Below, piece after piece: positions 1,080-59,975 of a stretch of 64,000 bases of DNA. The notes below the pieces were generated by a model, which was given only the letters and a program-made list of their open reading frames with translations, was not told where the DNA came from and made no database searches. Source of the stretch: Chiloscyllium plagiosum (lineage: Eukaryota); the NCBI RefSeq assembly GCF_004010195.1, contig NC_057718.1, positions 99,666,730-99,730,729 on the forward strand, written 5' to 3'. Position numbers and translations under genes: made by a program. The first letter of the stretch is position 1, and the number at the start of each line of letters is the position of its first letter.

Positions 1080-1172
1080 CAACAACCACCTGGTGAAAGA
1101 GCAGTGCCCCGAAAGCTAGTGCTTCCAAATAAACCTGTTGGACTATAACCTGGTGTTGTGTGATTTTTAACT
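1080..1172 (+). mobile_element. Penelope-like family A terminal fragment
   Basis: Degenerate hammerhead followed by GCTAGTGCTTCCAAATAAACCTGTTGGACTATAACCTGGTGTTGTGTGATTTTTAAC. Confidence 0.7.
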
Positions 1173-1473
1173 GGGGCAACTTAAGCAATGATAACGCACA
1201 GACGGGGAGCAGCACTCATTGCCTAGTGGGTAGTGTCCCTACCTCTGGGCTTGAAACTCCACGTTCATGTCCCACACCATGACGGTTAAGGAAGGTGCAT
1301 TTGTAATGAACCATAGCAAGTTGGGGAGCAACTTGTAAACTCTTTGAACACATGACATTCCAGGTGGTAAGAGTGGGAGAGGTTCCTGGTTAGTGATGGA
1401 ATGCGATCACCACTTGATAGCAAGAATGATTCAGAGGAGCCGGTGTGGGACTGGGATGGACTAAAATCTTTCA

Positions 1474-1552
1474 TCAGGAGCGGCGCTCCAAAAGCCAGTG
1501 CTTCCAAATAAATGTGTTGGACTATAACCTGGTGTTGTGTGATTTTTAACCT
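1474..1552 (+). mobile_element. Penelope-like family A terminal fragment
   Basis: Same terminal sequence as 1080-1172. Confidence 0.7.
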
Positions 1553-1595
1553 GATAGTAAGAAGTTTTTCATCACTATCCATAGTGCCACGCTAT

Positions 1596-1965
1596 GACCT
1601 TATAGAGGATTATACAATCAGGAGGGGTATAGATAAGGGGAATGGCAGCTGTCTTTTCCCTAGGGTGGTGGGATTCCAAGATTAGGGGGAAAATTTCTAA
1701 CATGAGAGGAGAAAGATTAAAAATACACAAGGGACAACCTTTTTACACAGAGGGTTGTTGATGTGTGAAATGAACTTCCAGAGGGAGTGGTGGACGTGGG
1801 TACATTACAACATTTAAAAGACATTTAGATAAGTACATGAATAGGAAAGGTTTGGAGGGATATGAACCAAAAACAGGCAGGTGGGATTATTTAGTCTGGG
1901 ATTATGGATGGCATGGACTGGTGGGACAAAGGGTCTGTTTCCGAGTCGTACGTCTCTATGACTTA
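1596..1965 (+). mobile_element. CR1/HER1-type LINE 3' fragment
   Basis: ORF2 end (MNRKGLEGY) plus 3' UTR. Confidence 0.85.
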
Positions 1966-1984
1966 AAACTCCGGTGTCAAGACT

Positions 1985-2295
1985 GCATAGAATCCCAAAG
2001 GTGTGAATCCCTTTGGCCCAGCCAGTTCACACCGACCCTCTGAAGAACATCCCACCCAGATCCATCTCATCCCTACATTTCCAGTGGCTAACCCACCTCT
2101 CCTGCACCATATGGGTAATTTAGCACAGCCAATCCTGCACACCTTTAGACTGTGGAAGGAAACCGGAGCACCCATGGGAAACCCATGCAGATGCGGGGAG
2201 AATGTGCAAACTCTACACTGACAGTCACCTGAGGTTGGAATTGAACCCGGGTCCCTGGCGCTGTGAGGCAGCGGTGCTAACCACTGAGCCACCCT
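1985..2295 (-). mobile_element. HE1-type tRNA-derived V-SINE
   Basis: A box TGGCTCAGTGG, B box GGTTCAATTCC and central GAGTTTGCACATTCTCCCC. Confidence 0.85.
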
Positions 2296-3389
2296 GCCAA
2301 GCCGACTTGCTGGCGGTGGGAGGTGCTTTCATAATGTGGCCAAACAGATTGGTAAACAGCGACCGTTCCTGATGACAGCAGGTAACAGCATGAGTCTTTC
2401 CTGGTCAGCCACCGCTCAGAAGGCACTAGCAAGGTGCTGCATTGCTTTGACGACTCGATTGGGCATCCATGGCTCAACTCTCGAACACGGCTTTGGAAAA
2501 TACGCAGTGAAATCAGTCACCCTGCCGTGTAAGTCCAGGGTCTGCGTCTCTCTCTCTCTCTCAAGGCATTGCTATAAGAAGATACTGTAGTTCTCCAAAC
2601 TGAGTTGCAGATTTGTCACACCATTTCTTACCTACCTGAAAACCAAAGTGCAAAACGAGTGGCCAATTCCCTATTACTCATGGTCTGCTCAGCGTCTGTA
2701 GGCAAGATTACTCCCACCTTTACACAAACAGCAAACTAACCATCTGGTAAATCAATGGACTTTCAGAGCCGTCTAATTTGTCGTTGGCTGCGCTTTTGCA
2801 GAGCACTGGTTAGATTTTCCCATTATTCTGCACTCTGGTTCCTGCAGAGCTAATTAATTACTGAGGGCCAGTGAAAGCATTCACAGGGCACTTTCCGTCT
2901 TGTCAGGTTCCATCATACTCTGAGTGTGTTGCTCATTTACATGGCTCAGCGCTGACAAATTGTAGCATTTGAAGCTGCAAATCTGCTGTACTGTGAGCCA
3001 TTTGCACGGCCTGACTTTGTTCTGAAAGAGCTGACGATGAGCTTCTACATAATGCTCCTTTTCACGGCCCGTGGAGTCTGAGCGGCGATGAATATCAACA
3101 CGAGCGGCGATGAATATCCCAGAAGGTGTTAGGTTGGTAACGAGGGCAACACTTTTTGTTGGAATCCCTTCCTACACTTCGGGAAACTTCAGTTTGGAAG
3201 CATGCTCAGTAAGAACTGAAGTAAGTTGCTTGCAGCTTTGTCCTGAGCTTTTAAAGATAAGCATTAGTGTCTTAAATGTGCAATTGGGACTGATATTTCA
3301 ATGCTGCACCGAGAGAGTGCTATACTGTCAGAGGCACTGTTCTTCAGAGGCTCTGTCTATTTGCTAGTTCATCTGGAAGATGGTTTTCT

Positions 3390-3720
3390 TTAGATTGCTT
3401 TACTTTAGATTACTTTACTTTACAGTGTGGAAACAGGCCCTTCGGCCCAACAAGTCCACACCGACCCGCCGAAGCGCAGCCCACCCAGACCCCTACATTA
3501 ACCCCCTACCTAACACTACGGACAATTTAGCATGGCCAATTCACCTGACCTGCACATCTTTGGACTGTGGGAGGAAACTAGAGCACCCGGAGGAAACCCA
3601 CGCAGACACGGGGAGAATGTGCAAACTCCACACAGTCAGTCACCTGAGGCAGGAATTGAACCCAGGTCTCTGGTGCTGTGAGGCAGCAGTGCAGTGCTAA
3701 CCACTGTGCCACCATGCCGC
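3390..3720 (-). mobile_element. HE1-type SINE (young subfamily)
   Basis: Full head, core and tail with a repeated AGTAA/TAATC end. Confidence 0.9.
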
Positions 3721-3944
3721 CCACTGGGGTTTTCCTGGAGTCATTGACGATGTTCTTCTCCTAATTAATATACAAACAATATTGCCAGGAAGTCATCTTG
3801 TTTTTTTCTTTGATCGTCCTGTTGACCACAGACTAACCGTCTCCATGGCCTATATCATTACAATCGTCAGGACAAATTCACACCCCACACTTTTAGACGT
3901 GGAAACTGAGTAAAGTGCTTTGGAACCACAAGTCTCTCAGAAAC

Positions 3945-7275: not shown

Positions 7276-7503
7276 CCTCAGCACAGAGATTTTTCAGTGG
7301 TCTATGCTGTGTATTATATAAGGATTAGAAGCTGTCATATGTTACATAGATGACATATTGATTCATGGGGAGTCAACCAAGGGACTTGACAATAGAGTCC
7401 ATGTAGTTTCTAAGATGACTCCAGGTCAAAGGTTCATTATCAATGGCAAGTCTGAATTTTCCAAGGATCTATTTGCTTCTTGGTACACATGGATGGAATA
7501 ATG

Positions 7504-7725
7504 AGATGGAAATGTGTTGCTGGAAAAGCGCAGCAGGTCAGGCAGCATCTAGGGAACAGGAGAATCGACGTTTCGGGCGTTAGCCCTTCTTCAGCCCTCC
7601 TGAAGAAGGGCTAATGCCCGAAACGTCGATTCTCCTATTCCCTAGATGCTGCCTGACCTGCTGCGCTTTTCCAGCAACACATTTCCATCTCTGATCTCCA
7701 GCATCTGCAGACCTCACTTTCACCT
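7504..7725 (+). mobile_element. Penelope-like family B inverted-repeat insertion
   Basis: Near-perfect inverted arms and a 35-nt tail. 16-bp TSD CATGGATGGAATAATG at 7488-7503 and 7726-7741. Confidence 0.85.
7598..7629 (+). ncRNA. Minimal hammerhead ribozyme motif, family B (mirror copy on the minus strand at 7565-7594)
   Basis: TC-CTGAAGA-A-GGGC taat GCCC-GAAA-CGTC-GA, with an ACGT palindrome and a GUC triplet. Confidence 0.72.
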
Positions 7726-7906
7726 CATGGATGGAATAATGCCAGACTCACGGAAAGCAAAGGCTGTTCAGGAATTTCCAATTCTGAAACTGGTGTACAG
7801 CCTACAAAGATTCAGTCGTTTTCCCTCACTTAGCGACAGAGACTGAACCTGTGAAGTAACTGCTGAAGAAGATGTGAGAGTGGTGCGAGAAAATGCACTG
7901 AACATC

Positions 7907-14482: not shown

Positions 14483-14677
14483 AATAAAGTCGAAATACTG
14501 TGGACGTTGGAAATGTGAAATTAACACAGAGAATGCTGCAGGAACTCAGCAAGTCTTGCAGCATCAGTAGACAGAGTTCCTGCAATTCTGAAAAAAGAGT
14601 CACCGGACTCGAAGCGTTAACTCTGTTTCTCTCTCCACAGATGCTGCCAGACCTGCTGAGTTTCTCTGTATTTGTTT
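14483..14677 (-). mobile_element. Penelope-like family D inverted insertion
   Basis: Inverted arms and a decayed hammerhead near 14588. TSD CAAATGGAATT at 14472-14482 and 14678-14688. Confidence 0.7.
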
Positions 14678-15667: not shown

Positions 15668-16011
15668 CTGTCTCCCTCTCTCTCTCTCTCTCTCCACAGA
15701 TGTGGCCAACATTTCTGAATATTTCCAGCATTTGATCCTTTTGTGTCAATTGCTGGTCTCGACAGGTGAGGTCAAGGCCATGAAAGTGGCAGCAATATTC
15801 AGAGCTGGAATGGACATTCTTGGGAAATTCCCCTGTCAAACCTGGCTTGACATATGGAAACCCAATGATCCCAAATGCCACCATCAAGTTCTGAATGGGA
15901 CATTTCTCCAAACAAAACATGGCTCCCTATGAAAAGGATGCTATGGTGTAGGATGTAGTGACGTCCAATATGGTCACTTGCTCAGCTCTTGAATCAGTCT
16001 GCTGTTATTGG

Positions 16012-18920: not shown

Positions 18921-19040
18921 GTCCTCAGTAACATAACAACAGTGCTACTGAATCTCCCCTACCTTTTACAATCTAATAGTTCTTCTACAATTAATATATT
19001 CAGCAAAGGATGTTTCTCTTGGACTACCTCAAGCATTTAG

Positions 19041-19253
19041 TTAAAAATCACACACCACGTTATAGTCCAACAGGTTTAATTGAAAGCACACTAGCTTTCT
19101 GAGCAACGCTCCTTCATCAGGTGATAGCTATCACCTGATGAAAGAGCGTCACTCCAAAAGCTAGTGTGCTTCCAATTAAACCTGTCGGACTATAACTTGG
19201 TGTTGTGTGATTTTTAACTTTGTACACCCCAGTCCAACTCCGGCATCTCCAAA
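19041..19253 (+). mobile_element. Penelope-like family A inverted-repeat insertion
   Basis: Palindromic centre TCATCAGGTGATAGCTATCACCTGATGA and a 35-nt tail. TSD TCAAGCATTTAG / TCAAGTATTTAG at 19029-19040 and 19254-19265. Confidence 0.85.
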
Positions 19254-21119
19254 TCAAGTATTTAGCGAGCCCATTAATCATTGCACACCTTTATCCCAAT
19301 ATTGCCTTATTAATCATCTCCTGGAAATTTCCTTATTAATCAACTCCAGGATCGAAAGCTTGGAAGTTCTCCAAAATTTATATATTTGTTGGGTATTTGT
19401 TCTCTCAATTGATGCAATTCTCGTTGTCAACTTCAGTATTTTTCTCTCTTTCATCATTCTAACCAATCTCAGTTGCACTGCACACTGCTCCCTCGGTTTT
19501 AAGCACGAATTCAGCCACGAGATAGCAAAGACAAAATCAAGGATCTGGATTTCAAATGCATCGTGCCCCATCTGTGTGAAAACATTAGTATCTGGGGAAA
19601 GGATTCCACGTTTTGAATTGATCAGAACAGTCACTGTAAAAAAGTCCCAGCTATTCATCATGAATTAATTCGACCCGCGGGGAGAAAATGCTTTGACGCT
19701 ATTTCAGAGCTGCGATAAAGTTGGCAAAGTCATCCTTTTCATTAAAAGCGAAAAGGCTCACTTTCGTAAGAAAGATTAATGAAGAAATGAGAAGAATTGT
19801 TGACATGTTGCTGCACAGCGATGATTATCCTGCTGAGTATTTGCAGTTTCCCAACTGCTCTGAGTTAAACACCATTTGCCAAAAGCTTCTTGCTTCTTTC
19901 GAAAGTGCTTAATAACTCGAGGTTTTGATTACACGACAAGATAATGCTATTTATTGCGGATGAGGTAACAAAGTTGTCAATGGGACTGAGGAACAAGGTG
20001 TGAGTGGAGAGAGAGGGAGGGATGAAGGGAGTTGGGGGAGGCTGTGCAGGAGACACTTTGAGCAATTTTTCCTGGCAAGCTGTTCGATCCTCCTGGGAGG
20101 AAAGAGAACAATACATACCATGAAAGTAAGGCATTTATCAAGTCCTTTTGATCCTTTCAAGATAAACACTCACAATGGCTAACTCTCGCTCCCTCACCTG
20201 CGCTGTGCTCAATTTAGCCCCTGTGGAGTGGGGACTGCGGGGTGGGGTTGTGGAGAATCAAATTACCTCAGCTTTGAACTGAAGAATGGCTCTTAACAAA
20301 TTAGCTCTGATATCAAAAGGAAGCTGAGCAGAACTCAAGCCTCTTCAGATAGTAAGCACAGCAACACCTACAAAACTCAATTCCAACTTCAAAAAGCATT
20401 CCCGGGGTTCTTTGTAGATAAGATATCCTTGAAGCAAGGTGGTTATAATTTCTTACATCCTGGATGACGCATTTGCCCAATCTATTTCTGGAATAAGAAA
20501 ACACCTAGACCATTGGATAACAGTGTCCTAATGACTAACCCATCCCTTCATGTTCAATTCTGTTCCCACCCCTCACGTGGTAAACACCTTGAAGGCACAT
20601 TAGGAAGTTTAGTCATGTGGGACATATTTTATGAAAAGAGAAAATGTTTACAAACCTTGTCCTACAAATTTGAAAGGCCAGGTTTCTGTGGTAAAGATAT
20701 TGACCCAGTGAGGAAGATTTTGTGTTCGCTGGGACACCATATACTGCCCAATCCTAGTTGTCATCTACTTCGCTGTGGGTCTGGAGTCATATGTAGGCCA
20801 GACCAGGTCCTTCCTTGAAGGACATTACCAATTACCATTCCCCCAGCAATCTCTTCATGGTCATTATCAGACCCTTAATTTCAGCTTTTGATTTAATTCA
20901 AATTACGCCATTGGCCATAATGGGATTTGAGCTCAGGCCCTTAGTCCTTGGCCCTCCACTGGGAGAAGAAGCAATGGCCCTTGTGATATTATTGCTTGGA
21001 CTATTAATCCAGAGACTGAGATAATGTCCTGGGGACCCAGGTTCAATCCTGCCATGGTAGATGGTACAATTTGAATTTTTAAAGAAATCTGGAATTAAGA
21101 GTCTAATGATGACCTTGAA

Positions 21120-21324
21120 GTTAAAAATCACACAACATCAGGTTATAGTCCAACAGGTTTATTTGGAAGCACTAGCTTTCGGAGCGCTGCTCTGTCCACA
21201 ATCACCTAATGAAGGAGCAGCGCTCTGAAAGCTAGTGCTTCCAAATAAACCTGTTGGACTATAACCTGGTGCTGTGTGATTTTTAATTTGGTGCACCCCA
21301 GTCCAACACCGGCATCTCCAAATC
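21120..21324 (+). mobile_element. Penelope-like family A inverted insertion inside a SINE
   Basis: TSD ATGATGACCTTGAA / ATGATGACCATGAA at 21106-21119 and 21325-21338. Confidence 0.85.
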
Positions 21325-22012
21325 ATGATGACCATGAATTGATTGTTGGTAAAATCCCATCTGGTTTACTAAAGTCTTTCAAGTAAGGAAACTTCTATCC
21401 TCACCAGGTCTGGCCTACATGTGATTCCAGACCCACAGCAATGAGGTTGACTCTTAACCGCTCTCTGGGCAATTCGGGAGAGGTACTAAATGCTGCTGAA
21501 CCAGTGGCACTCTCATTCTGTGAATGAGTTTTTAAAAAACCAATACCTTGCCACAACTGCCAGCATTAACAAGTAATCATCTTAACTGAAAGATAATAAC
21601 TGTTCCAGTTAGGTTAATGCCACCAGTTACCATAAACTTCTGAAGTTTGCTTAAAAAAGCACAGTGCTTCCCAAACCAACCTCCGGTGGTGATTCCATCT
21701 TAAGGCCTCAGTCTTTGTGTGACTGTGAAGGAAACTTGATTGGGGGAGGTGATGGTCTTTATTCATTGAGCGGTGCAGAGGGCTTTAGTTCTTGGCCAGG
21801 GCAGAAGGGGAAACTGGAGCTGAGCTTTGGGAACCAAGTTGATGAATGGGCCATCTAGAAGAAAATAATTTTTTTCACCATTTTTTTTTGAAGCAGCAAT
21901 TGGACCTGAGGGAGCAGTCCCATTAGACCACACCCACCAATTAAAAAAATAAATGAGGATTTAAAGGGGACTCCCAGCTGCCAGGTATCACTAATATATT
22001 GCTATATTAGTG

Positions 22013-22196
22013 GTAGAAGTGGGTTCTGCAGATGCTGAAGATTTGAGTCAAGATTAGAGTGGTGCTGGAAATGCACAGCAGGTCAGGCAGCATCTGAGGA
22101 ACAGGAAAATCGACTTCTTGACCGAAATGTTGAGTTTCCTGCTCTTCGGAGGCTGCCTGACCTGCTGTGCTTTTCCAGCACCACTCTAATCCTGAC
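22013..22196 (-). mobile_element. Penelope-like family B-related inverted insertion
   Basis: 13-bp TSD TGCTATATTAGTG at 22000-22012 and 22197-22209; 34-nt tail on the left. Confidence 0.82.
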
Positions 22197-24450: not shown

Positions 24451-24535
24451 CGTTTAGACAGAGCCTTGGCACATCACAGCAGGTCAGTTGAAGAAGTGCC
24501 TAGATTCAGACCCTGCTAAAGGAGGTATCAGTAGA

Positions 24536-24744
24536 GCTGAAAATGTGTTGCTGGAAAAGCGCAGCAGGTCAGGCAGCATCAAAGGAGCAGGAGAATCAAC
24601 GTTTCGGGCATAATTCCTGAAGAAGGGCTTATGCCCGAAACATCGATTCTCCTGTTCCCTGGATGCTGCCTAACCTGCTGCGCTTTTCCAGCAACACATT
24701 TTCAGCTCTGATCTCCAGCATCTGCAGACCTCACTTTCTCCTCA
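24536..24744 (+). mobile_element. Penelope-like family B inverted insertion
   Basis: 14-bp TSD GAGGTATCAGTAGA at 24522-24535 and 24745-24758; hammerhead core at 24617. Confidence 0.85.
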
Positions 24745-24783: not shown

Positions 24784-24945
24784 ATTAAGGTTATAGTCCA
24801 ATAGGTTCATTTGAAATCACAAACTCCAACTTGATGAAGGAGCGGTGCTCTGAAAGCTTGTGATTTCAAATAAAGCTGTTGGACTGTAACCTGGTGTCAT
24901 GTGACTTCTGACGTTGTCCACTCCGGTCCAACACCAGCACCTTCT
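24784..24945 (+). mobile_element. Penelope-like family A-related inverted fragment
   Basis: TGATGAAGGAGCGGTGCTCTGAAAGCTTGTG core with family-A-like flanks. Confidence 0.65.
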
Positions 24946-26428: not shown

Positions 26429-26429
26429 A

Positions 26430-31026: not shown

Positions 31027-31150
31027 GGGTCCTGAGGAAGGGTTACACCCGAAATGTTGACTTCTCCACCTCCTGACGCTGCCTGGCTTGCTGTGTTCTT
31101 CCAGCCTCCTGATGTCTACCCTGGATTCCAGCATCTGCAGGGTTTCTCTG
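31027..31150 (+). mobile_element. Penelope-like family C terminal fragment
   Basis: Begins at the hammerhead GTCCTGAGGAAGGGTTACACCCGAAA and ends CCAGCATCTGCAG. Confidence 0.7.
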
Positions 31151-39669: not shown

Positions 39670-39910
39670 GACAAAAGAAACTGCAGATGCTGGAACCCAA
39701 AGTAGGCAAAACAGGAAGCTGGGAGACCACAGGCAGCATCAGGAGGTGGAGTACTCAACATTTCGGATGTTAACCCACCCCCAGTCCTGAGGAAGGGTTA
39801 CACCCGAAACGTTGGCTTCTCCACCCCCTGATGCTACCTGCCTTGCTGTGTTCCCCCAGCCTCCTGATGCTGCCTGCCTTGCTGTGTTCCCCCAGCCTCC
39901 TGCCTATCTA
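39670..39910 (-). mobile_element. Penelope-like family C inverted insertion
   Basis: Inverted arms around a hammerhead at 39787, with an internal ~36-bp tandem duplication. Confidence 0.72.
39784..39816 (+). ncRNA. Minimal hammerhead ribozyme motif, family C
   Basis: GTC-CTGAGGA-A-GGGT tac ACCC-GAAA-CGTT-GGC. A similar copy near 31029-31061 has stem I GTC/GAC. Confidence 0.7.
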
Positions 39911-40534: not shown

Positions 40535-41365
40535 AGTGTGTGTGAATCTGTGTGGTCTGTATATATATGTCTGTGTCTATGTGTGTGTATAGGAGAAAGT
40601 GAGGACTGCAGATGCTGGAGATCAGATTCGAGAGTGTGGTGCTGGAAAAGCACAGCAGGTCAGGCATCATCCGAGGAGCAGGAGAATCGACGTTTCGGGC
40701 ATAAGCTCTTCATTAGGCTTCCTGATGAAGGGCTTTTTGATTTTCCTGCTCCTCGGATGCTGTCTGACCTGCTGTGCTTTTCCAGCACCACACTCTCAAC
40801 TCTATGTGTATATGTCTGTGTGTGTGTGTGTCTGTGTGTCTGTATCTGTGTGTGTGTGTCTGTGTGTATATGTCTCTGTCTGTGTGTATGCATGTGCATG
40901 TGTGTGTATGCATGTGGCTGTGTGTATGAATATGTCTCTGTGGTGTGCGTCTGTGTGTGTGTCTGTGTGTATATGTCTCTGCCTGTGTGTGTGTGTGTCT
41001 GTGCGTATATGCCTCTGTGTGTATGCATGTGCGTGTGTGTGTGCGTGTCTGTGTGTATGTGTCCCTGTCTGTGTGTATGCATGTGTGTCTGTGTCTGTAT
41101 GTAACTGTGTATGTATATGTCTGTGTCTGTGTCTGTGTGTGTGTGTCTGTGTGTGTGTCTGTGTGTATATGCCTCTGTCTGTGTGTGTGTGTCTGTGTCT
41201 GTGTGAACATGTCTCTGTCTGTGTGCATGCATGTACGTGTGCGTGTGTATGCATGTGTGTCTGTGTGCCTGTGGGTGCTTGTATGTATATGTCTCTGTCT
41301 GTGTACATGCATGTGTGTGTGTGTGTATGCATGTGTGTCTGTGTGTATATTGTTTTGTGTGTGTT
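40535..41365. repeat. Degenerate (TG)n microsatellite
   Basis: TG/TC/TA dinucleotide runs. Confidence 0.95.
40592..40800 (-). mobile_element. Penelope-like family B inverted insertion within a TG-rich repeat
   Basis: Head GGAGAAAGTGAGGACTGCAGATGCTGGAGATC followed by an inverted arm. Confidence 0.8.
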
Positions 41366-42830: not shown

Positions 42831-43147
42831 CTGAGAAAGAGCTTTTCTCTGTCTCCTGGCCAATATTTATCCCTCAGCAAAGAGCAGATTATCAGTTTAT
42901 CAGCAGAGGCTGAGAGCCAAATTCAGAACCCATGGGGATAGCCGCAACGGGGACCTGGGGTTCATGTCACACTACAGGTGACCCCACTGCACTATGCACT
43001 CTCTCTCACACACACACACTCTTACATACTCACGCACTCATGCAGACGCTCTCTCATACATTTGGAGATGCCGGTGTTGGACTGGGGTGTACAAAGTTAA
43101 AAATCACACAACACCAGGTTATAGTCCAACAGGTTTAATTGGAAGCA

Positions 43148-43182
43148 CACTAGCTTTCGGAGCACCGCTCCTTCATCAGGTA
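43148..43182 (-). ncRNA. Minimal hammerhead ribozyme motif, family A
   Basis: Reverse complement reads TAC-CTGATGA-A-GGAGC ggt GCTCC-GAAA-GCTA-GTG. Confidence 0.72.
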
Positions 43183-43391
43183 GTTGTGGAGGACACATTG
43201 TAAGGCGCAGAATTTATAGCAAAAGTTTACAGTGTGATGTACTGAAATTTATACATTGAAAAATACCTTGATTGTCTGTTGAGTCTTTCATCTATTCGAA
43301 TACCATGATAGTGAAACAATGTATAATTTCAGTTACATCACACTGTAAATTTTTGCTATAAATTCTGTGTTAGTATTGAACCCTCCACTAT

Positions 43392-43426
43392 CACCTGATG
43401 AAGGAGCGTCACTCCGAAAGCTAGTG
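43392..43426 (+). ncRNA. Minimal hammerhead ribozyme motif, Penelope-like family A
   Basis: CAC-CTGATGA-A-GGAG cgtca CTCC-GAAA-GCTA-GTG. Stem I is CAC/GTG, the palindrome is AGCT and the triplet is CUA. Confidence 0.75.
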
Positions 43427-45084
43427 CTTCCAATTAAACCTGTTGGACTATAACCTGGTGTTGTGTGATTTTTAACTCTCTCATACACATGCTCTCTCTC
43501 ATAAACACACACATACACCCCCTACACTCACATCCTCTCACAGGCTGATACTCCATCACACTCACATACACTTTACCAAGCATGCACACATGTAAACACA
43601 CGCTTTCTCATGTGTACTCTCACTCAAATGCACATAGGTCGATGGGATTAATTTGCATTTGCAGAATTATATTTGCAGATACATTCTGTTTTTGCTCAAA
43701 AATCTCACAATCTGCAGGCAGTCAATGCAGCCAGCCAATCCATGTAATATTTTATAAATTCTTATTTTGGAAATAGAACCAGTCTGACTCAAGATAGGAT
43801 ACAGACGAACTCTAACCTTACACCTTTAATACATTGTCCGAGCTGAGATGTCACCGTTTTTTTATGAAACCTTAAGTTATCTCGAGAATGTGACTTAAAA
43901 GAAGTTCTGGGATTTACATATTAATGAACCGAAACCTGAAACCCATTCTAAAAGATGAAAGACTCAACAGTAATCAAGGGTTGTTCAATATATCGTTTCA
44001 GTTGCATGACACTGTGATCTTTTGCTCTAAATTTGGAAGCTAGTGCTTCCAAATAAACCTGTTGGACTATAACCTGGTGTTGCGTGATTTTTAACTCTGT
44101 ACACACCAGTCCAACATCGGCTCCTCCATGTCATATCAGTTTATTATTACATTTCTCCTTGTTGGAGTTTGCTGTGCGTAAATCTGCTGCTTTTGCACTT
44201 ATATTGCAACAGCAGCTGCACTTCTAAAGCACCTCATTGGCCCTAAAGCTCATCGTGATGTCATGACAGGTGCTACATAAATGCACCTATACAGCTAGAT
44301 ACCACACCACATGCTGCATTATTCACTCACTATCAAGGACCTTATTAAAAAATAATGCACAACACCATGAATCTTCCGGAGGGTTATGCACTAATGTATT
44401 TTGAGTTGTTAATGAGGTTCTGACCTCTAACTCATATCACTGAGGTCGCAGTTTGGGTTCAATCCTCCACGCCAAGTTATACTGGTATCCTTAACCCTGG
44501 CCACCATTCCGACAAATCCACTCAGATTCACTGAATAACAAGTGACTACTTTCACAGCCCACAACAACCCAAGCCAATAAACCAAAGCGGCTCAGAGAGA
44601 GCAAAAAGAAGGAATTTCTCCAGTGAAGCACCAACAAAGGGACAGTCAATGAGCCTTTGTAAAACGTGGAAGCCCTGAGGTGACCTGAATTCAAGGATAG
44701 AGTTACAGATGAAGTGAATGGTAGTGGTGTGCAATGATCTCAAATTGGCTTCACAACACAAAACCAATCAGAGATCTGAACCACCTTTGCAAATAACTCC
44801 CAAGCTATAATTACTCATAATTACCTGCATACACATAAAAATTATTACCTAAGCATCTTCACAGGCACATTTTTGGAATAGCTGCTTCTAAAATATTGCT
44901 TTCTTTCCTTCTGGAATGTTCTGTTCAGGAAGGGCATTATAAAACATGTGAAATGATTATTTTGCTGTGTTGTGTGCTACTTTGAACTTGCTTATTTCCA
45001 CAACATTGCTGAACACCCAACATTTAAAATATCAGGAATTTTTACTGACGATCTTATAAGTAAATAGTTGTTAATTCATATCTT

Positions 45085-45676: not shown

Positions 45677-45884
45677 TTTCAAAGTGTGTGGTGCTGGAAA
45701 AGCACAGCCGGTCAGGCAGCATCCAAAGGGCAGGAGAATCGACAGTTTGAGCATCAGCAAAAGCAATCCTGATGAAGAGCTTATGCCCGAAACGTCAACT
45801 CTCCTCCTCCTCGGACCCGCTGTGTTTTTCCAGCCCCACACTCTTCGACTCTGATCTCCAGCCTCTGCAGTCCTCACTTTTCTC
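45677..45884 (+). mobile_element. Penelope-like family B inverted insertion
   Basis: 15-bp TSD CTGATTTGGTTTCTA at 45662-45676 and 45885-45899. Confidence 0.82.
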
Positions 45885-46789: not shown

Positions 46790-46910
46790 CATTTCTGATG
46801 CAGGGTCACTAGAACCCGAAATGTTAGCTTTTCTTTCTCTCTCTATAGATGCCGCCAGACCTGCGGAGTTTCTCCAGCAATTTCTGTTTCATTTCAGCAT
46901 CCGCCATTTT
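46790..46910 (+). mobile_element. Penelope-like family D fragment
   Basis: Decayed hammerhead CTGATGCAGGGTCACTAGAACCCGAAATGTTAGC plus family D body. Confidence 0.6.
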
Positions 46911-47170
46911 TGTAAGTTTCCAATTCATGGGAACTTGGGGATTGTATTTTGAGGAGAGACTGAGCAAGCTAGGCTTCTCCTCTCTGGAGTTTTGACATAA
47001 ACCTGATTGAAACATTTACAATTCTGTTATCTTTTTTGCCTTTTCCGTGACTCAGTGAAGACACCGTTGTGCAAAAAACTTGATTCAATATTTCCACCAG
47101 CAGGGAATCCCCATGGGGCCAGGGAACGCGTAAGGAGCAAAACCTGAAGCAAAATGCTTATGTGAAGCAA

Positions 47171-47458
47171 GTTAAAAATCACACAACACCAGGTGATAGT
47201 CCAACACATTTATTTGGAAGCACTAGCTTTCAGAGCACTGCTCCTTCATCAGGTAGCTAGTGGGGCAGGGTCATAAGACACAGAATTTATAGCAAAAGAT
47301 CACAGTGTCATACAACTGATGCGATATATCATATTTTTAGTAATATATAGCAGCGCTCCAAAAGCTAGTACTTCCAAATAAACTTGTTGGCCTATAACCT
47401 GGTGTTGTGTGATTTTTAACTTTGTCCCCCCCAGTCCAACGCCGGCACCTCCACATCA
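47171..47458 (+). mobile_element. Penelope-like family A inverted insertion
   Basis: GTTAAAAATCACACAACACCAGG arm, its inverse and a tail. Confidence 0.78.
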
Positions 47459-48411: not shown

Positions 48412-48548
48412 ATGGAAAAGTGTGGCACTGGAAAAGCACAGTAGGTCAGGTTGCATTCGAGGAGCTGGGCAGTCATCGTTTCAGGCCTTGACACACGTTT
48501 CACACGCTTTGACTCTGATCTCCAGCATCTGCAGTCCTCACTTTGTCC
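48412..48548 (+). mobile_element. Penelope-like family B decayed insertion
   Basis: CTGGAAAAGCACAGTAGGTCAGG arm and CTGATCTCCAGCATCTGCAGTCCTCACTTT tail. Confidence 0.6.
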
Positions 48549-49939: not shown

Positions 49940-50332
49940 ATAAAAAAAAGCTGCAGCTGCTACAATCCAAAATAGACAGGCAGGAGGCTGGAAGAACACA
50001 GCAAGGCAGTCAGCATCAGGAGGTGGAGTAGTTCACATTTCAGATGTAACCCTTCTTCAGGGAAAAGGGTTCTGAAGCAGAGTTACACCTGAAACGTTGA
50101 GTTCTCCACCTCCTGATGTTGCCTGGCTTGCTGTGTTCTTCCAGCCTCCTGCCTATCTACTAGGTGAAAGCGAGTACTGCAGATGCTGGAGATCAGAATC
50201 TAGGTTAGAGTGGTGCTGGAAAAGCACAGCAGGTTAGGCAGCATCCGAGGAGCAGGAGAGTCAACGTTTCAGACAAAAGCCCTTCATCAGGATGATCCTG
50301 ATGCTTTTCCAGTACCACTCTAATCTTGACTC
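49940..50332 (-). mobile_element. Adjacent family C (about 49940-50160) and family B (about 50161-50332) inverted insertions in an old CR1 relic
   Basis: Two inverted-arm units with hammerhead remnants; degenerate CR1 RT sequence on both sides. Confidence 0.72.
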
Positions 50333-50664: not shown

Positions 50665-50870
50665 AGTTCTGAAGGAGGGTCACTGGACTCAAAACATTAA
50701 CACTTGCTTTCCCTCCGCAGAGTAGATAAAGTGGGGAGCTGGAAAAAGCACATCAGGTCAAGCAGCATCAGAGGAGCAGGGGAGTTGATGTTTCAGGTCG
50801 GAACCTCTCATCAGGACCCTCTCCATGGATGCTGCCAGATCTGCTGAGTTTCTCCATTAATTTCTGCTTT
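50665..50870. mobile_element. Composite Penelope-like fragments (families D and B)
   Basis: GTTCTGAAGGAGGGTCACTGGACTCAAAACATTAAC and an antisense core GTTTCAGGTCGGAACCTCTCATCAGG. Confidence 0.55.
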
Positions 50871-51656
50871 AGGCTAAGGTCTGACAACTGTCCTGTGAGG
50901 AGAGCTATCTTAGCTGGATCTCCATGCCTGTGGCTGGTATTTGTTGCTTGTCTATAATTACCCCTGAAAGAACTGGGTTTCTGGGCCATTTCTGAGGGCC
51001 GTTCGGAGCTGACCACATTGCTGTGGGTCTGGAGTCACATGTAGGCCAGACCAGGTAAGGATGGCAGATTTCCTTCTCTAAAAGGACATGACTGAACCAG
51101 ATGGGTCTTTCCAACAATGGCTTCATGGTCATCATTAGATTCTGAATTCCAGATTTTTTATGCCTCCGGGCAAATTGTCAGTCAGTTTGAAAACTCCAGC
51201 GTAAAACCTCGGCTAAAATATTCGATTGCTTCTCTCTTTATTTCATCATGCCATCTTGGGCTGGACATGGCCACAATGGGAGTGTCAATAGCAGGGAATG
51301 GGACATAGTGTAGTGTGAGTCCCACTCTCTCATTTGAGAAGAGGTTTACAGAGGCAGTGGGGTGATGGGGTGGGGGGGGGGACGTTCAGGATGAGGCAGA
51401 GTTCTTCCACCTCTTGATGGGAAGTGTCTCTTCGGGCACTTCACAGGGCAGCCGCGGCCTGGAGGACCCTCTGGGCAGGTCGCCGACCTTACCAAGAACT
51501 GCTGACCAATCAGCTCTCCTTTTGCTCAGTCATGCTGCCGGTGAGGGGGGAGAAGGTGACCGTTGCTGGGATACTGCATCTGCCCTGGGCCTCAGATCAT
51601 GGATGCACCCAGAGTGATGGCAAAGGAGGGGTCACTGGGGAGGGTGGGGGGTTAGA

Positions 51657-54972: not shown

Positions 54973-55908
54973 AAAAATCTGTCCATCTCCACTTTAAATT
55001 TACTCATTGTCCCAGCATCCCCACTGCGCTCTGGGAAGGTGAATTGCACAGATCCATGAGCCTTTGAGAGACTTAATTTCTCTTCATCTCTGTTTAACTC
55101 TTCTGTCCTTTATCCTAAAACCACCAACTCTTGTTCTTGATCACCTCATGTGAAGGAACATCCTCTCTGTGTCTAGTGTGTCAATCCCCTACGTTATCTT
55201 ATGGACCTCCATTAGATCTCCTCTCATTCTTCGAAACATCAGACAGCTTAAACTGCCCAATCTCAGCAAGACAGTTGCCTCAGCTCTGGAATCAATCTGG
55301 GTGAACGTCTTGAAGCATTGTGGACACACCCCACTCAAAATGAAAGCTGTAGTAAGACCTGTGTGCCTAACATATCAAACTCGGGTCTGCACTGGAAAAC
55401 CTGGGCTACTGGGGTGGCTCAATTGTTGCCTCACAGCGCCAAGGGCTTGGGTTCGATTCCACCTTCGGGTAACTAACTGTGAGGAGTTTGCACATTCTCG
55501 TAGATGAATGGCTGTAAATTGGGAGAGGGGAGTGTGCAGTGGGACCTGGGTGTCATTGTACCCCAGTCACTGAAGGTAAGCCTGCAGCGAGTGGTAAAGA
55601 AGGCAAATGGTATGTTGGCCTCCATTGTGAGAGGTTTTAAGTACAGGAGCAGGGATGTGTTGTTGCAGTTAGACATGGCCTTGGTGAGACCACACCTAGA
55701 ATATGGTGTACAGTTTTGGTCTCCTTTTCCTGAGGAAGGATAGTCCTGCTCTCAACGGAGTGCAGCGAAGGTTTCCCAGGCTGGTTCCAGGGATGGTGGG
55801 ACTGACGTATGAGGGGAGATTGACCAAGTTAGGATTGTTTTCCCTGGGGTTCAGATGGGTGAGGAGTGATCTCACAGACTTATAAAATTTTAACAGAACT
55901 AGACAGAG

Positions 55909-56075
55909 TTAAAAATCACACAACACCAGGTTATAGTCCAACAGGTTTAATTGGAAGCACTAGCTTTCGGAGCGACGCTCCTTCATCAGGTGGTTGTGGA
56001 GTATAAGATCATAAGACACAGAATTTATAGCAAAAGATTACAGAGTCATGCAACTGAAACGACAGTCATCCACGT
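55909..56075 (-). mobile_element. Penelope-like family A insertion inside a CR1
   Basis: Intact antisense hammerhead; imperfect TSD CAGAACTAGACAGAG / CAGGACTAGACAGGG. Confidence 0.78.
55958..55992 (-). ncRNA. Minimal hammerhead ribozyme motif, family A
   Basis: Reverse complement reads CAC-CTGATGA-A-GGAGC gtc GCTCC-GAAA-GCTA-GTG. Confidence 0.78.
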
Positions 56076-56620: not shown

Positions 56621-56760
56621 AGTGAAACTCAAGCACATTGACTATAAATCCACTTGTCTACCATCCCTGTGCTTCCACCACCCATTCCTCAGGGCACATC
56701 ATTTCCCCTCACTGGGGGCAAGCATCCCATCATTCATTGCTTGGCTATACTGAAATACTA

Positions 56761-56858
56761 GGAGAAAGTGAGGGCTGCAGATGCTGGAGATCAGAGCTGA
56801 AAATGTGTTGCTGGAAAAGCGCAGCAGGTCAGGCAGCATTCAAGGAGCAGGAGAATCG
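56761..56858 (-). mobile_element. Penelope-like family B fragment
   Basis: GGAGAAAGTGAGGGCTGCAGATGCTGGAGATCAGAGCTGAAAATGTGTTGCTGG. Confidence 0.75.
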
Positions 56859-57124
56859 TTGGGTGGGACTCGAACCAGTCTCTATATTTTTTGACAGTGA
56901 CTTGGTGTTCCCTCTTCCTGCCCACACTTTCTTTGATTCTTCCACGACAAGGCCAGCATTTGTTGCCTGTCCCTAATAGCTCCTGAACCGAGTACTGGCC
57001 TGGCTGTTTCATGTTGCCAAGGGTCTGGATTCACGTGTAGGCCTGAACGTTGTGGCGGTGGGGGGGGGGGGGGGGGGGGCAGATTCCTTCCCCCAAGCTG
57101 AACTGAAGATGTTTTCACAACTAA

Positions 57125-57560: not shown

Positions 57561-57571
57561 CTACAAGATCA

Positions 57572-57601
57572 CTGAAGAAGGGCTTATGCCCGAAACGTCG
57601 A
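57572..57601 (+). ncRNA. Minimal hammerhead core, family B
   Basis: CTGAAGA-A-GGGC ttat GCCC-GAAA-CGTC-GA. The 5' strand of stem I is truncated at the insertion junction. Confidence 0.6.
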
Positions 57602-57692
57602 TTCTCCTGTTCCCTGGATGCTGCCTGACCTGCTGCGCTTTTCCAGCAACACATTTCCAGCTCTGATCTCCAGCATCTGCAGACCTCACTTT
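57575..57692 (+). mobile_element. Penelope-like family B single-arm insertion
   Basis: 16-bp TSD CTCTACAAGATCACTG at 57559-57574 and 57693-57708; the insertion starts at the hammerhead core. Confidence 0.85.
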
Positions 57693-58376
57693 CTCTACAA
57701 GATCACTGCCTGTTCTTCAAAGCCCCCAGAAAACTCAGTCCTGGTCTCCTCCGAGAGCAGCCCTACCATCCCAGGAATCAGGCAAGGGCTCCAAAACTAC
57801 TCACAATGCTCCAGAAATGGCCTCTCAGTATTGAGGCGTTTTAAAATACTCTAACATACCCTGACGTCTCATTTCTCTAATGATAAATTAGCTGAACCAA
57901 GGCTCATTTGCTCTAGTGTATCCTGCCTTATAATTCCAGATTCTAATAGTTATATTTGTCTTTCATCAGCTGCTATGGTCAGGTTTGTGCCCTTGGTATA
58001 GGAACATTAGCCCAGACCACAATGACAGTGTCACTGTGATGTAATCTCCCCCATATGCAGGAGTTCAATAATATCTTACCGTGCCAATACTAAATGGCCA
58101 GCTGTCCCATAATCCAACTTTGGCCAATTGGCAGGCTGGCTTTCAGAGCAAGCTGCAGCCCTTTAAGGGTTGCTGATACAGAGCTATCTGTGCTTGGGTA
58201 TCACTGCTGTACTCCCAACATCACCCATCACTGTCACAAGTGAATTGTCGAACGTCAGGACAACATGTAACAAGATGGCAAACACAGACAGAGGAGCAGC
58301 AGTCCCAACATTCCAACACAGAACGTAATTATTTGCATTGATATGTACAGTGCTCACCTGATATCTGGGCTGAGAC

Positions 58377-58575
58377 TGTTTGTGTGTGTGTGTGTGTGCA
58401 TATCTGTGTGTTGTGTTTGTTCATGTATGTGTATTTGTGTGTGGGAGTGTACGGTTTTGTGTTTGTGCGTGCGAGTTTGTCTGTGTGTGTTGTGCATGTG
58501 TGTGTGTGTTTTTGTGTGTGCATGTGTGTTTGTGTGTCTGCATAGTTGTGTGGGAAGTGTGTGTGTGTGCATGCG
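58377..58575. repeat. Degenerate (TG)n microsatellite
   Basis: TG runs. Confidence 0.9.
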
Positions 58576-59121
58576 CAGATGCACGTACAACATCCTCTGA
58601 GTTCTGAGGTATTTTAAAGTATTACATGCTAAGCTGGTGCAGATTCACAACAGGAATCATTTCTCCATTAGCCTGAGATAAACTAAACATTTACAATATA
58701 AAGCAAACCAGTAAATATCGAACACTAGTTGGGCCAACATTTACTGCCTATCCTTTACTGTCCTTGAGAGGTTGGTGTTGAACTGCCTTCTTTAACCTGT
58801 TCAGCGTACATAGTGTCGGTATGGAGCTGGTAAGGAGGCAGATCCAGAATTTTGATCCGGCAACATTCTTATCACCAACACAGGCAGGAAAGATTCCCCA
58901 ATCTATCCTTATACCATTCAAACCAAGCTCAGGAGGTGGAAGGACAGTGCACTCGAACCTTCCTGAAAGAAGTGATCTGTTTCCTCATAAAACCTTTGCC
59001 CGTGGCTCCTGTCCATGCATTCCATTGGTACAAAGTTAAATCACTGGCCTAAGTACTTTCTTTGTTTTAAAATCAACCTTTCAGGGCATGTTGTGGTATA
59101 TCTCTAGGATGGGGAGGGCTT

Positions 59122-59400
59122 GAAACAGCAGCAGACTTTGCTGGATAAACTCAGCAGGTTTGGCAGCATATGTGGAGAACAAAATAGAGTTAATGCTCTG
59201 AGTCTGTTGACCCTTCTTCAGAACTGACAGTAGCTCAGAATAGAGGGATTGGGTAGTAGGGGAAGGAGTAACTGCTGGATGGAGGTAGAGTCCAGAGAGA
59301 GAGAACAGCGGAGAAAGGAATGGATAATGGTGAGCCGGGGAGAAAGCAAAGCTGTTAATGGGACCGTTAATGGGTGAAAATGTGTTGACTGTGATGATCG
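59122..59400 (-). mobile_element. Penelope-like family D fragment with longer internal sequence
   Basis: AAACTCAGCAGGTTTGGCAGCA ... GACCCTTCTTCAGAAC followed by a purine-rich internal stretch. Confidence 0.55.
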
Positions 59401-59609
59401 GTGGAATCTGGGTCTTCTAAGCCAGAAGGATGGACACTACCAATATGCCATGCTGTGTCCTAATCAGCTCCAATTGATAACTTTATCCAGTTTATGTTAG
59501 TCTGTGGCGCAGCAATAGGTGAATGTTAAATGCGTTCTCCTCTGGTTCAGTTTGGAGAAATTCTATGTTGAAGGATCAAATTTGAACAGTGCTCCCACAG
59601 TAGTTCAAA

Positions 59610-59720
59610 GGGTTCTTGTGGTACAATGGTAGTTTCCCTACCTCTGAGATAGCAGCTTCAATTTCCAACTGCTCTGGAGGTGTGTAGTCACATCTCTGAG
59701 TTGCTGGACGAGGAAAAACC
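59610..59720 (+). mobile_element. Short tRNA-head SINE family 4 (also about 1215-1280, 38205-38300, 39075-39170, 60120-60230)
   Basis: A motif like GGTAGTGTCCCTACCTCTG recurs across the copies. Confidence 0.55.
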
Positions 59721-59864
59721 CTGGACTCAAGACTGGTTTTTATTTTGCAGAATCCTACATACCACCCTCAGCTGATCGGAAAGGGAGCTTCAAGGGAAAG
59801 GTAAGACTTTATACATGTGACCCTTCTGAGAGATTCTGGAATCTCTCTCTCTTGGTTTACAAGA

Positions 59865-59975
59865 GGATGTGGGGGAGCCGGTGTTGGACTGGGGTGGACA
59901 AAGTTACAAATCACACGACACCTGGTTATAGTCCAACAGGTTCATTTGAAATCCAATGCTTTTGGAGCGCTGCCC
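59865..59975 (-). mobile_element. Penelope-like family A fragment
   Basis: CCGGTGTTGGACTGGGGTGGACAAAGTT ... TTATAGTCCAACAGG. Confidence 0.7.

Follow-up and report, generated by a model that had tools for sequence, protein, structure and literature searches.

Minimal hammerhead ribozymes are known from Penelope-like elements (PLEs), and Cervera and de la Peña (2014) describe four sequence hallmarks for them (PMC4209133). A related element, PAc of Anolis, encodes an enzyme that is reported to extend both DNA strands, and its reverse transcription begins 111-118 bases into a frame that starts in hammerhead stem II (PMC11167929). The window studied here, a 64-kb stretch of the shark Chiloscyllium plagiosum, contains many short repeat units (stubs) with a motif of this type. 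The stubs are real, and their kind is already known, as the minimal hammerhead was previously described for PLEs. An earlier sequence-only reading of this DNA was partly confirmed in its observation and partly supported in its interpretation.

Repeat units in the window

Homology searches placed 46 repeat units in the window, 15 of family A and 31 of other families. The hammerhead part is still recognisable in about 31 of the 46, and 17 retain both core boxes, one of these with G at position 17. The earlier count of more than 25 elements is sound by homology. The core pattern CTGANGA-N6-30-GAAA occurs 28 times in the window, against a mean of 5.85 in 100 shuffles (sd 2.94, largest 15); 17 of the 28 matches lie inside repeat units, and the remaining 11 are close to chance level. 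When a structural scan with strict criteria (a bulge of 1 base, G10.1-C11.1, and 4 bp or more) was run on 451 kb, it found 26 motifs: nine in the window and 17 in a random genome sample of 387 kb. The reversed sequence, used as control, gave none. A search for a PLE reading frame within the window found none. The units are as follows; left and right refer to the arms of head-to-head pairs.

1084..1172 (+): A stub; hammerhead part present, one core change (CTGGTGA), helix II decayed
1476..1550 (+): A stub; hammerhead front missing, G12 to A
7503..7594 (-): B stub, left; both core boxes intact, motif 7571-7594
7596..7727 (+): B stub, right, pairs with 7503..7594; both core boxes intact, ACGU, C17
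9868..9998 (-): B stub; one core change (CTGATGG), ACAU
14586..14666 (+): D stub; two core changes
15689..15733 (+): D-like tail fragment without hammerhead part
19039..19123 (-): A stub, left, perfect head-to-head junction; core boxes intact (19096-19120), outermost helix II pair broken
19132..19223 (+): A stub, right; G12 to A
21119..21192 (-): A stub, left; core decayed, two changes
21200..21286 (+): A stub, right; one core change (CTAATGA)
22012..22114 (-): B, tail only, left
22093..22187 (+): B, tail only, right; this hairpin gives a weak microRNA-like match in Rfam
24533..24623 (-): B stub, left; broken off inside hammerhead at inversion junction
24615..24744 (+): B stub, right; core boxes intact, helix III ACAU
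24788..24825 (-): A tail fragment, left
24829..24918 (+): A stub, U17 subfamily, right; one core change (TTGATGA)
31029..31140 (+): C stub; core boxes intact, AUGU, U17, helix I at most 5 bp
34520..34617 (-): D stub, left; core boxes intact, helix II 5 bp including two G.U, AUGU, U17
34629..34732 (+): D, tail only, right
39712..39789 (-): C stub, left; two core changes
39782..39870 (+): C stub, right; core boxes intact, ACGU, U17; tail with 36-base duplication (39827-39902)
40591..40717 (-): B stub, left; one core change (CTAATGA)
40738..40803 (+): B, tail only, right
43091..43185 (-): A copy, left arm of long inverted pair; core boxes intact (43155-43179), reaches upstream of hammerhead
43392..43482 (+): A copy, right; core boxes intact, innermost helix II pair C.A, about 68 bases further upstream
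44037..44100 (+): A, tail only; homology begins about 6 bases 5' of the predicted cut
45686..45758 (-): B, tail only, left
45767..45880 (+): B stub, right; core boxes intact (45769-45792), three of four helix II pairs
46793..46904 (+): D stub; one core change (CTGATGC)
47170..47254 (-): A copy, left; core boxes intact (47228-47252), reaches upstream
47349..47426 (+): A stub, right; broken off inside hammerhead
48412..48489 (-): E-like stub, left; decayed
48513..48544 (+): distal B tail fragment, right
49951..50061 (-): C stub, left; core boxes intact (50038-50060), G at position 17 and hence no valid cleavage triplet
50069..50151 (+): C stub, right; one core change (CTGAAGC)
50162..50292 (-): B stub; core boxes intact (50267-50290), helix II including two G.U, U17
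50666..50721 (+): F fragment; two core changes
50700..50817 (-): E stub, left; core boxes intact (50791-50814), bulge G, A-U at 10.1-11.1, ACAU
50819..50872 (+): D/E-like tail fragment, right
55900..55995 (-): A copy, fully intact: CAC / CUGAUGA / A / GGAGC-GUC-GCUCC / GAAA / GCUA / GUG
56760..56861 (-): B tail without hammerhead; starts exactly at nt 1.1, the base after the predicted cut; upstream DNA unique in genome
57100..57220 (-): F stub; core boxes intact (57192-57217), ACAU, U17
57572..57693 (+): B stub, fully intact; 16-base direct repeat on both sides (57559-57574, 57693-57708)
59138..59224 (-): D stub; three core changes
59897..59983 (-): A stub; two core changes

The motifs quoted in the sequence-only reading were located where it had placed them, for family A at 55958-55992 (-) and 43392-43426 (+), for B at 7598-7629 (+), for C at 39784 and 31029 (+), and for D at 34580-34615 (-). 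Two of the quoted sequences contained a wrong letter. The 3' strand of helix II in the 43392 copy opens with A instead of G, which makes its innermost pair C.A, and the 31029 copy reads UGUU instead of CGUU.

Thirty of the 46 units form 15 head-to-head pairs. This arrangement bears on whether the units are non-LTR retrozymes, which are head-to-tail tandem repeats with type-I hammerheads that spread via small circular RNAs, instead of PLE fragments. Vertebrate retrozymes do have hammerheads of type I; a 2026 preprint traces these retrozymes to PLE pLTRs and records them in one chondrichthyan (10.64898/2026.07.22.740005). In the window, three minus-strand motifs lie within 800 bases (50038-50814). 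However, these three belong to different families (C, B, and E), none of the 13 Tandem Repeats Finder rows in the window is an array of hammerhead units, the pairs are not head-to-tail, and no joint of the back-splice type is present among the read joints listed. A retrozyme origin is therefore very unlikely.

Hammerhead anatomy and covariation

All four hallmarks reported for PLE hammerheads (PMC4209133) were found, in agreement with the earlier identification of the motifs as the minimal type-I form. Of the 26 strict motifs, 24 have A as the base separating A9 from 10.1. Helix III is ACGU or AGCU, or a CpG-decay form of these; AUGU (family D and one C copy) and ACAU (others) look like CpG decay of ACGU. 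Stem pairing was assessed in 84 units chosen by tail homology and retained if the core was recognisable, with pairing itself never a criterion. Among these 84, 44 have G-C and 22 have G.U at position 10.1-11.1. In helix II, pairing is found in 273 of 336 cells; shuffles average 69% (sd 1.4%), and none of 500 reaches the observed value; pair 3 alternates between G-C (43) and A-U (18), and pair 4 among C-G (30), G-C (16), U-A (12), and U.G (7). Helix I is short: family B has 2 bp and family A has 3 bp. It is paired in 158 of 252 cells (shuffles, 52%), and two A subfamilies are distinguished by CAC/GUG versus UAC/GUA. The earlier statement that the stems vary yet remain paired was confirmed across units. 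Going by the literature and the loopless palindrome, the motif may depend on dimers, and cross-dimerisation between ACGU families is formally possible because families B to F and one further family have ACGU in common.

Covariation in the helices also weighs against hairpin-forming DNA transposons (MITE-like) or chance palindromes that merely resemble hammerheads. The 15 head-to-head pairs are what such a reading would draw on, with the 7503-7727 pair predicted to fold into a near-perfect hairpin (-191 kcal/mol) and weak microRNA-like Rfam matches falling on these pairs. Single units nevertheless occur with their own 16-base target duplication, the arms range from less than 100 bases to more than 3 kb, some with PLE reading frames, and the strict motif is absent from reversed sequence. 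This explanation deserves almost no credence.

Family relationships, abundance, and link to PLEs

The families had been described as four unrelated ones, which does not hold. Among the 31 non-A units, 27 were matched by more than one of the B to F queries via a common tail. At the level of sequence, B, C, D, E, and F are linked by this homologous tail, and A stands alone; C, D, E, and F are connected to PLEs only via their tail homology with B.

The exact A 35-mer (as in 55900..55995) has 5,931 genome copies and the exact B 36-mer (as in 57572..57693) has 28,555, with none for either reversed control, which bears out the predicted very large genomic population. A random genome sample of 387 kb contained 94 tail matches. 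Outside the window, PLE reading frames are followed, 243-625 bases downstream, by motifs of the A and B types: the A motif is 625 bases past the frame end in loci L001 and L019, and the B-type motif is 243 and 330 bases past frame ends in L016 and L008. Motifs at PLE frames are about 95-125 bases from the insertion end, and relatives of these frames carry reverse transcriptase plus GIY-YIG. L001 is an inverted pair containing a reading-frame fragment with 85% identity to shark protein P0002; the fragment also aligns to P0010 and P0016, both with RVT_1 plus GIY-YIG. Three candidate full-length elements (L002, L076, and L077) have interiors of N. The units are very probably short copies, without coding content, of the last 95-130 bases at the 3' end of PLEs, each starting with a minimal type-I hammerhead; this ribozyme likely cuts element RNA on the 3' side of position 17, and would probably do so as a dimer or aided by protein.

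Probable cleavage in living cells

At four of the 46 U6 loci, the five T's that end U6 run directly into GATT, which begins at the base after C17 of family B. A junction-spanning search found seven distinct U6 fusion loci with an identical junction at the predicted cut and at least three tail variants; these seven may derive from as few as three events. Hammerhead cleavage leaves a 5'-OH on the 3' product. Mature U6 ends in five U's and a 2',3'-cyclic phosphate, and RtcB ligates such ends to 5'-OH RNA (PMC6789731). The exact position of the junction suggests, as indirect evidence, that the hammerhead likely cleaves in living cells. Many other U6 loci are joined to the 5' end of a SINE, so template switching at any RNA 5' end, and not ligation, could yield such fusions; template switching would still require a 5' end at nt 1.1.

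Single-cell polyA RNA reads of run X19 cover the B unit at 57572..57693 on both strands. Of 1,647 reads, 1,639 fit this unit only partly, and 97% continue into unlike flanks. There was no pile-up of read starts or ends at the cut or the unit start, in a library type ill-suited to show such ends.

Lack of read ends at the cut would also be expected if the source elements retained the motif for a non-catalytic role, such as a promoter, leader, or protein-binding structure of PLE RNA, with cleavage in vivo seldom or never occurring. The hammerhead is uncut in most stubs, starts at nt 1.1 are few, helix I has just 2-3 bp, published in vitro activity is low (PMC4209133), and core mutants of PAc are reported to still insert (PMC4209133, PMC11167929). 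In contrast, the catalytic boxes, G10.1-C11.1, and a valid NUH triplet are preserved across families otherwise different in sequence, all seven U6 fusions fall exactly at the predicted scissile bond, and C3 or G8 mutants abolish PAc cleavage while the double mutant rescues it (PMC11167929). The non-catalytic role is accordingly unlikely, though it carries more weight than the other two alternatives. Under the preferred reading of a working ribozyme, germ-line cleavage would occur but inefficiently, with U6 fused at nt 1.1 at seven loci and yet an uncut hammerhead in most stubs.

Insertion, pairing, and comparison with known elements

The B unit at 57572..57693 is flanked by a target duplication of 16 bases, and a contig in run X15 that lacks 57559-57692 represents the empty-site allele. 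The start lies between -7 and +2 of C3 in 31 of 78 B units, most often at -3 (11 units), and 22 of the 78 stop at +125. Only three have their start at nt 1.1, give or take one base, and 17 have it at -3/-4, which indicates that most templates were uncut; most PAc templates are likewise reported uncut. Many stubs, which start sharply 3-4 bases ahead of C3 and stop sharply at +125, may be run-off copies of a short RNA, or of an RNA leader, in which the reverse-transcription start site lies. The window copies are presumably dead insertions in neutral decay, which would be fastest at the two CpGs within the motif. The head-to-head pairs could arise by priming of the PLE enzyme on both DNA strands, as in Anolis PAc. 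The motif itself resembles the PLE minimal hammerhead in the unpaired base after A9, G10.1-C11.1, the loopless ACGU/AGCU palindrome, and the covarying helices.

Occurrence of the hammerhead-bearing units

The four hammerhead motifs quoted in the sequence-only reading, one for each of families A-D, were all recovered in the window where it had placed them. A loose pattern of the two catalytic boxes (CTGANGA-N6-30-GAAA) gives 28 matches in the window, against a mean of 5.85 (sd 2.94, largest 15) in 100 dinucleotide-preserving shuffles of it; 17 of the 28 lie within repeat units and the other 11 are near the chance level. A strict scan, requiring one bulged base, a G10.1-C11.1 pair and a helix II of at least 4 bp, was applied to the window and to a 387-kb random genome sample (40 stretches of 10 kb from two contigs), which together amount to 451 kb. 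It found 9 motifs in the window and 17 in the sample (26 in total), and none in the reversed sequences of either.

Six window copies, representing the four families of the sequence-only reading (A-D) and two more (E and F), were used as BLAST queries, and their matches were grouped into 46 units spanning window positions 1084-59983. The units are short copies of Penelope-like elements (PLEs), in which the ribozyme part comes first and is followed by a tail. A recognisable hammerhead part is present in about 31 of the 46 units and both core boxes in 17, one of which carries G at position 17. Thirty units form 15 head-to-head neighbour pairs (minus strand followed by plus strand), and no head-to-tail array of units was found in the window among 13 Tandem Repeats Finder rows. 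The Rfam search of the window returned no gathering-level match and no hammerhead among 19 matches at E values up to 10. This silence is expected of a motif without a closed helix III, so it was not weighed against the finding. A tRNA scan of the window found none.

Other repeats stand beside the units. A tandem array with a 69-base (or 137-base) period and about 16 copies (10000-11138) abuts the B unit at 9868-9998, and at 24073-24449 and 40805-41364 unit pairs have as neighbours a 21-base minisatellite of 18 copies and a long microsatellite rich in TG.

Tail matches number 42 in the window (0.66 per kb), compared with 94 in the 387 kb of random genome (0.24 per kb), and strict motifs occur at 0.14 and 0.044 per kb, respectively. 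The window is thus about three times denser than the genome average. Extrapolated to the 3.56-Gb genome, these densities suggest a total of several hundred thousand units, with motifs that look intact numbering about 10^5.

Anatomy and covariation of the hammerhead

Intact copies follow one order: helix I of 2-5 bp, CUGANGA, one unpaired base, a 4-5 bp helix II whose closing pair is G10.1-C11.1, GAAA, an ACGU or AGCU that has no loop, and H17, with the predicted cut between position 17 and nucleotide 1.1. The boxes CUGANGA and GAAA stand in type-I order in the 17 unit-borne matches of the window. Among the 26 strict motifs, the base left unpaired between A9 and 10.1 is 24 times A and twice U; the 15.2-16.2 palindrome, which has no loop 3, is ACGU in 14, AGCU in 6, ACAU in 4 and AUGU in 2; and H17 is C in 16, A in 7 and U in 3. 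Family B has in effect 2 bp in helix I, and family A, with two subfamilies that differ there (CAC/GUG and UAC/GUA), has 3 bp. A further hammerhead family with a U bulge and a 7-bp helix II was found in the random sample (L017:210 and L034:2138; L-numbers denote loci elsewhere in the same genome) and is absent from the window.

To avoid selection by pairing, a set of units was picked by tail homology alone. This gave 136 matches in 451 kb; 118 of them extend to the start of the tail, and of these 118, both boxes are kept in 40 and a recognisable core in 84. Pairs were counted across the 84 units by a script anchored on the core boxes, and not from the columns of a MAFFT alignment, because the alignment misplaces cores and stems across differing helix II lengths. 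Slid pairing controls were confounded by GGG/CCC runs. Helix II is paired in 273 of 336 cells (81%), compared with a shuffle mean of 69% (sd 1.4%), and helix I in 158 of 252 cells (63%), compared with 52%. None of 500 shuffles reached the observed pairing for either helix, although the copies are related by descent, which inflates such tests, so these counts are not probabilities. At pair 3 of helix II, 43 units have G-C and 18 have A-U; at pair 4, 30 have C-G, 16 have G-C, 12 have U-A and 7 have U.G. Helices I and II thus show clear compensatory changes among families.

The bulged base is A in 74 of the 84 units, and the closing pair 10.1-11.1 is G-C in 44 and G.U in 22. Two CpGs lie inside the motif, at C11.1-G12 and C15.2-G16.2. 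The commonest defects are this G.U pair (22/84), AAAA in place of GAAA (20/118), and ACAU or AUGU in place of ACGU. They fit the products expected of CpG decay, the G.U pair fitting a C-to-T change at C11.1-G12. On this pattern, the UGUU given for family D by the sequence-only reading, like the UGUU of one C copy, is probably decayed CGUU.

Family relationships and the link to Penelope-like elements

The sequence-only reading described four unrelated families, and this did not hold. The 15 family A units are matched by query A only, while 27 of the 31 non-A units are matched by more than one of queries B-F and share a homologous tail downstream of the ribozyme. The window therefore holds two lineages, with A alone separate, rather than four unrelated families.

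The assignment of these motifs to PLE-type minimal hammerheads proved right, both by their sequence hallmarks and by the position of A and B motifs downstream of PLE reading frames. Exact copies of an A 35-mer occur 5,931 times in the genome and those of a B 36-mer 28,555 times, and the reversed controls do not occur. No PLE reading frame was found within the window, and a Pfam search of 12 of its 33 frames of at least 120 aa found no domain. Elsewhere in the genome, locus L001 carries A motifs as an inverted pair 3.6 kb apart, with arms of about 1.5 and 2.2 kb, enclosing a frame fragment with a reverse-transcriptase domain. This fragment is 85% identical to an uncharacterised shark protein and aligns to two related proteins, P0010 and P0016, both with RVT_1 and, at the C-terminus, a GIY-YIG domain; the left arm holds the C-terminal part of the frame in opposite orientation. 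In both L001 and L019, about 625 bases separate the end of the frame from the A motif downstream, which is about 95-110 bases away from where the insertion ends. L016 and L008 carry PLE frames of a second lineage that is distant from the first, and there a B-type motif follows the frame end at 243 and 330 bases, respectively. A and B motifs thus sit in the flanking repeat of elements of the reverse transcriptase plus GIY-YIG type, and the putative tie of families C-F to PLEs runs solely through their tail homology with B.

B motifs also occur as direct pairs 2.4-3.8 kb apart in L078-L080, where no clear PLE frame was found, and in three candidate full-length elements (L002, L076 and L077) the interior is given as N. 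PLEs typically insert as partial copies, inverted or in tandem, with 5′ truncations of varying extent, and such copies are present in the 15 window pairs, L001 and L078-L080.

Unit ends and insertion

Unit ends were not evenly spread. Of the 78 tailed B units, 31 have their start in the interval from -7 to +2 around C3, with a mode at -3 (11 units), 22 end at +125, and another 13 run more than 60 bases upstream. Of the 33 A units, 13 are long, and in 11 the start falls no more than 13 bases from C3.

A 16-base direct repeat stands on both sides of the B unit at 57572-57693 and is read as a target duplication (window 57559-57708), which gives an insertion of 118-134 bases. In a contig from sequencing run X15, which bears the same species label, position 57558 is joined directly to 57693, with one other letter differing in 342 bases. 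The contig is an empty-site allele, so this insertion is recent and polymorphic.

These ends can be compared with PAc, the Poseidon-type PLE of Anolis carolinensis (Frangieh et al. 2024, PMC11167929). As described there, the PAc hammerhead lies at the junction of pLTR and frame, reverse transcription starts 111-118 bases downstream, and the enzyme cleaves and extends both DNA strands. The start distance matches the shark tails of 95-125 bases, and extension on two strands would give head-to-head pairs like those of the shark. By analogy, the short units, or stubs, would be copies running from the reverse-transcription start back to the RNA 5′ end just before the hammerhead, and head-to-head pairs would arise by priming on both DNA strands.

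One B tail in the window (56760-56861, minus strand) starts exactly at the base after the predicted cut and adjoins sequence found nowhere else in the genome. The tail may have been copied from a cleaved RNA, or have been truncated there by chance. The upstream DNA, at 56862, was considered as a tRNA-like partner in a second kind of chimera and was rejected, since it has no second copy in the genome and does not take up a tRNA fold.

U6 fusions and possible cleavage at the predicted bond

The genome was searched with the Rfam U6 model, and the 3′ flanks were read at 46 loci. In four of these, the five terminal T's of U6 run straight into GATT, beginning at the base after C17 of family B. No U6 fusion to families A, C or D was found among the 46 loci. 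A genome search with one natural U6-tail junction as query gave seven distinct loci with an identical junction and at least three tail variants. Several of these fusions are head-to-head pairs in which U6 is 5′-cut in one arm. At L084 (G000:C31:9507164-9507815), there are three U6 matches, with head-to-head U6-tail chimeras and a partial U6 duplication between the arms.

Hammerhead cleavage leaves a 5′-OH on the 3′ product. Mature U6 has a five-U end with a 2′,3′-cyclic phosphate, and RtcB joins such ends to 5′-OH RNA (PMC6789731). The U6 fusions are good indirect evidence of an RNA 5′ end at the predicted bond, as read from genomic junctions, and three events might be enough to account for all seven.

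In at least 12 other U6 loci, U6 is joined to a SINE near the latter's 5′ end, so that fusions could also arise by template switching at the 5′ ends of RNAs instead of by ligation. The U6-SINE chimeras (L050, L057, L058, L062, L067, L070-L075, L081, L082, L085, L088 and L094) are distinct from the U6-Penelope ones; their junction coincides with the U6 3′ end or lies no more than a few bases from it, and the partner is the 5′ end of an abundant tRNA-like SINE. Further observations also speak against cleavage being strong or frequent. Only 3 of the 78 B units start within one base of nucleotide 1.1. In run X19, a single-cell polyA library ill suited to such ends, the RNA reads do not pile up with their ends at any point of the B unit; 97% of its reads on this unit continue into unlike flanks, on both strands.

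Taken together, germline cutting by the PLE hammerhead would be recorded by U6 ligated to the 5′-OH product, with the chimera then copied by the PLE enzyme, and the fixed-end stubs of 125-130 bases would be run-off copies from a reverse-transcription start near the RNA 5′ end. We regard this joint reading as tentative and put its chances slightly below even. If true, the fusions and stubs would be a natural read-out of where PLE RNA starts, is cut and begins to be copied. The precision of the fusions makes in vivo cleavage directly testable, which bears on whether minimal hammerheads work in animals.

Helix III and dimers

A four-base palindrome without a loop cannot form a hairpin within one copy, and helix III would therefore require another copy. 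A dimer model has been published for these hammerheads (PMC4209133), and cleavage as dimers is attributed to Lunse, Weinberg and Breaker (2016) in the review PMC6765202. ACGU is common to families B-F and the further family with the 7-bp helix. Mixed dimers among ACGU families, which the sequence-only reading had raised, are formally possible but speculative. Cofolding of two copies gave stem-swapped or off-centre dimers and not the hammerhead dimer; nearest-neighbour energies cannot judge such dimers. The head-to-head pair at 7503-7727, folded as one RNA, gave a near-perfect hairpin (-191 kcal/mol), and RNA read through such a pair would, on this model, fold into a hairpin and not a ribozyme.

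Weak microRNA-like Rfam matches fall on head-to-head pairs at 19099-19156, 22072-22172 and 40669-40758 (E 0.06-0.5, far below gathering level). These pairs would form long perfect hairpins if transcribed.

Comparison with known systems

To our knowledge, PLEs are the least understood class of retrotransposons. To this class the present elements contribute members from a cartilaginous fish that occur in very many copies, together with one insertion that is recent and polymorphic and with covariation that is clear at the level of families.

The closest relatives are the minimal hammerheads of PLEs described by Cervera and de la Pena (2014, PMC4209133), and the finding of the sequence-only reading, as it was worded, mainly restates that publication. 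The shark motifs share with them the boxes, the single bulge, G10.1-C11.1, the loopless palindromic 15.2-16.2 and a short helix I, as well as several covarying families per genome and mostly solitary copies or opposite-strand copies 100-700 bases apart. Thousands of copies are reported there in fishes, coelacanth and Xenopus; no cartilaginous fish, sharks included, is named in the sections drawn on here. A literature search on Penelope, shark and ribozyme found no relevant paper. The differences lie in helix II, mostly 4-5 bp in the shark compared with the 6-8 bp stressed in that paper, in helix I, which is 2-3 bp in the two commonest shark families, and in copy number, extrapolated to about 10^5 intact-looking motifs compared with the 4,000-9,000 quoted. 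The 7-bp helix II family of the random sample (L017, L034) is closer to the published long helix II. Canonical type-I hammerheads of Rfam have the same catalytic core and helix order; unlike them, the shark motif has neither a closed helix III nor loop-loop contacts.

PAc is known through biochemistry, whereas the shark elements are known here from sequence. Its ribozyme is described as protein-assisted, with uncut RNA as the main template, and its reading frame starts in stem II (PMC11167929). In contrast, reading from the core ATG of the shark A unit meets a stop after 8 codons, and reading from the loop II ATG of the B unit at 57572-57693 meets one after 29.

Non-LTR retrozymes (Cervera and de la Pena 2020; Li et al. 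2026, preprint) resemble the shark units in their type-I hammerheads, weak helix III and non-autonomous nature, and the preprint argues that they derive from PLE pLTRs. Retrozymes are described as head-to-tail tandem arrays that give circular RNAs, whereas the window units are solitary or inverted.

A literature search on U6 snRNA with Penelope-like elements found none on such fusions by title. The nearest parallel is the U6/LINE-1 chimera (Moldovan et al. 2019, PMC6789731), in which the five-U tract of a full or 5′-cut U6 is linked to a retroelement RNA fragment at the fragment's 5′ end and the product is then retrotransposed. In those chimeras the carrier is L1 and the junction falls at variable L1 positions, whereas in the shark the carrier is a PLE, several of the insertions are head-to-head pairs, and the junction falls at one base, directly after the predicted cut, in all seven fusions.
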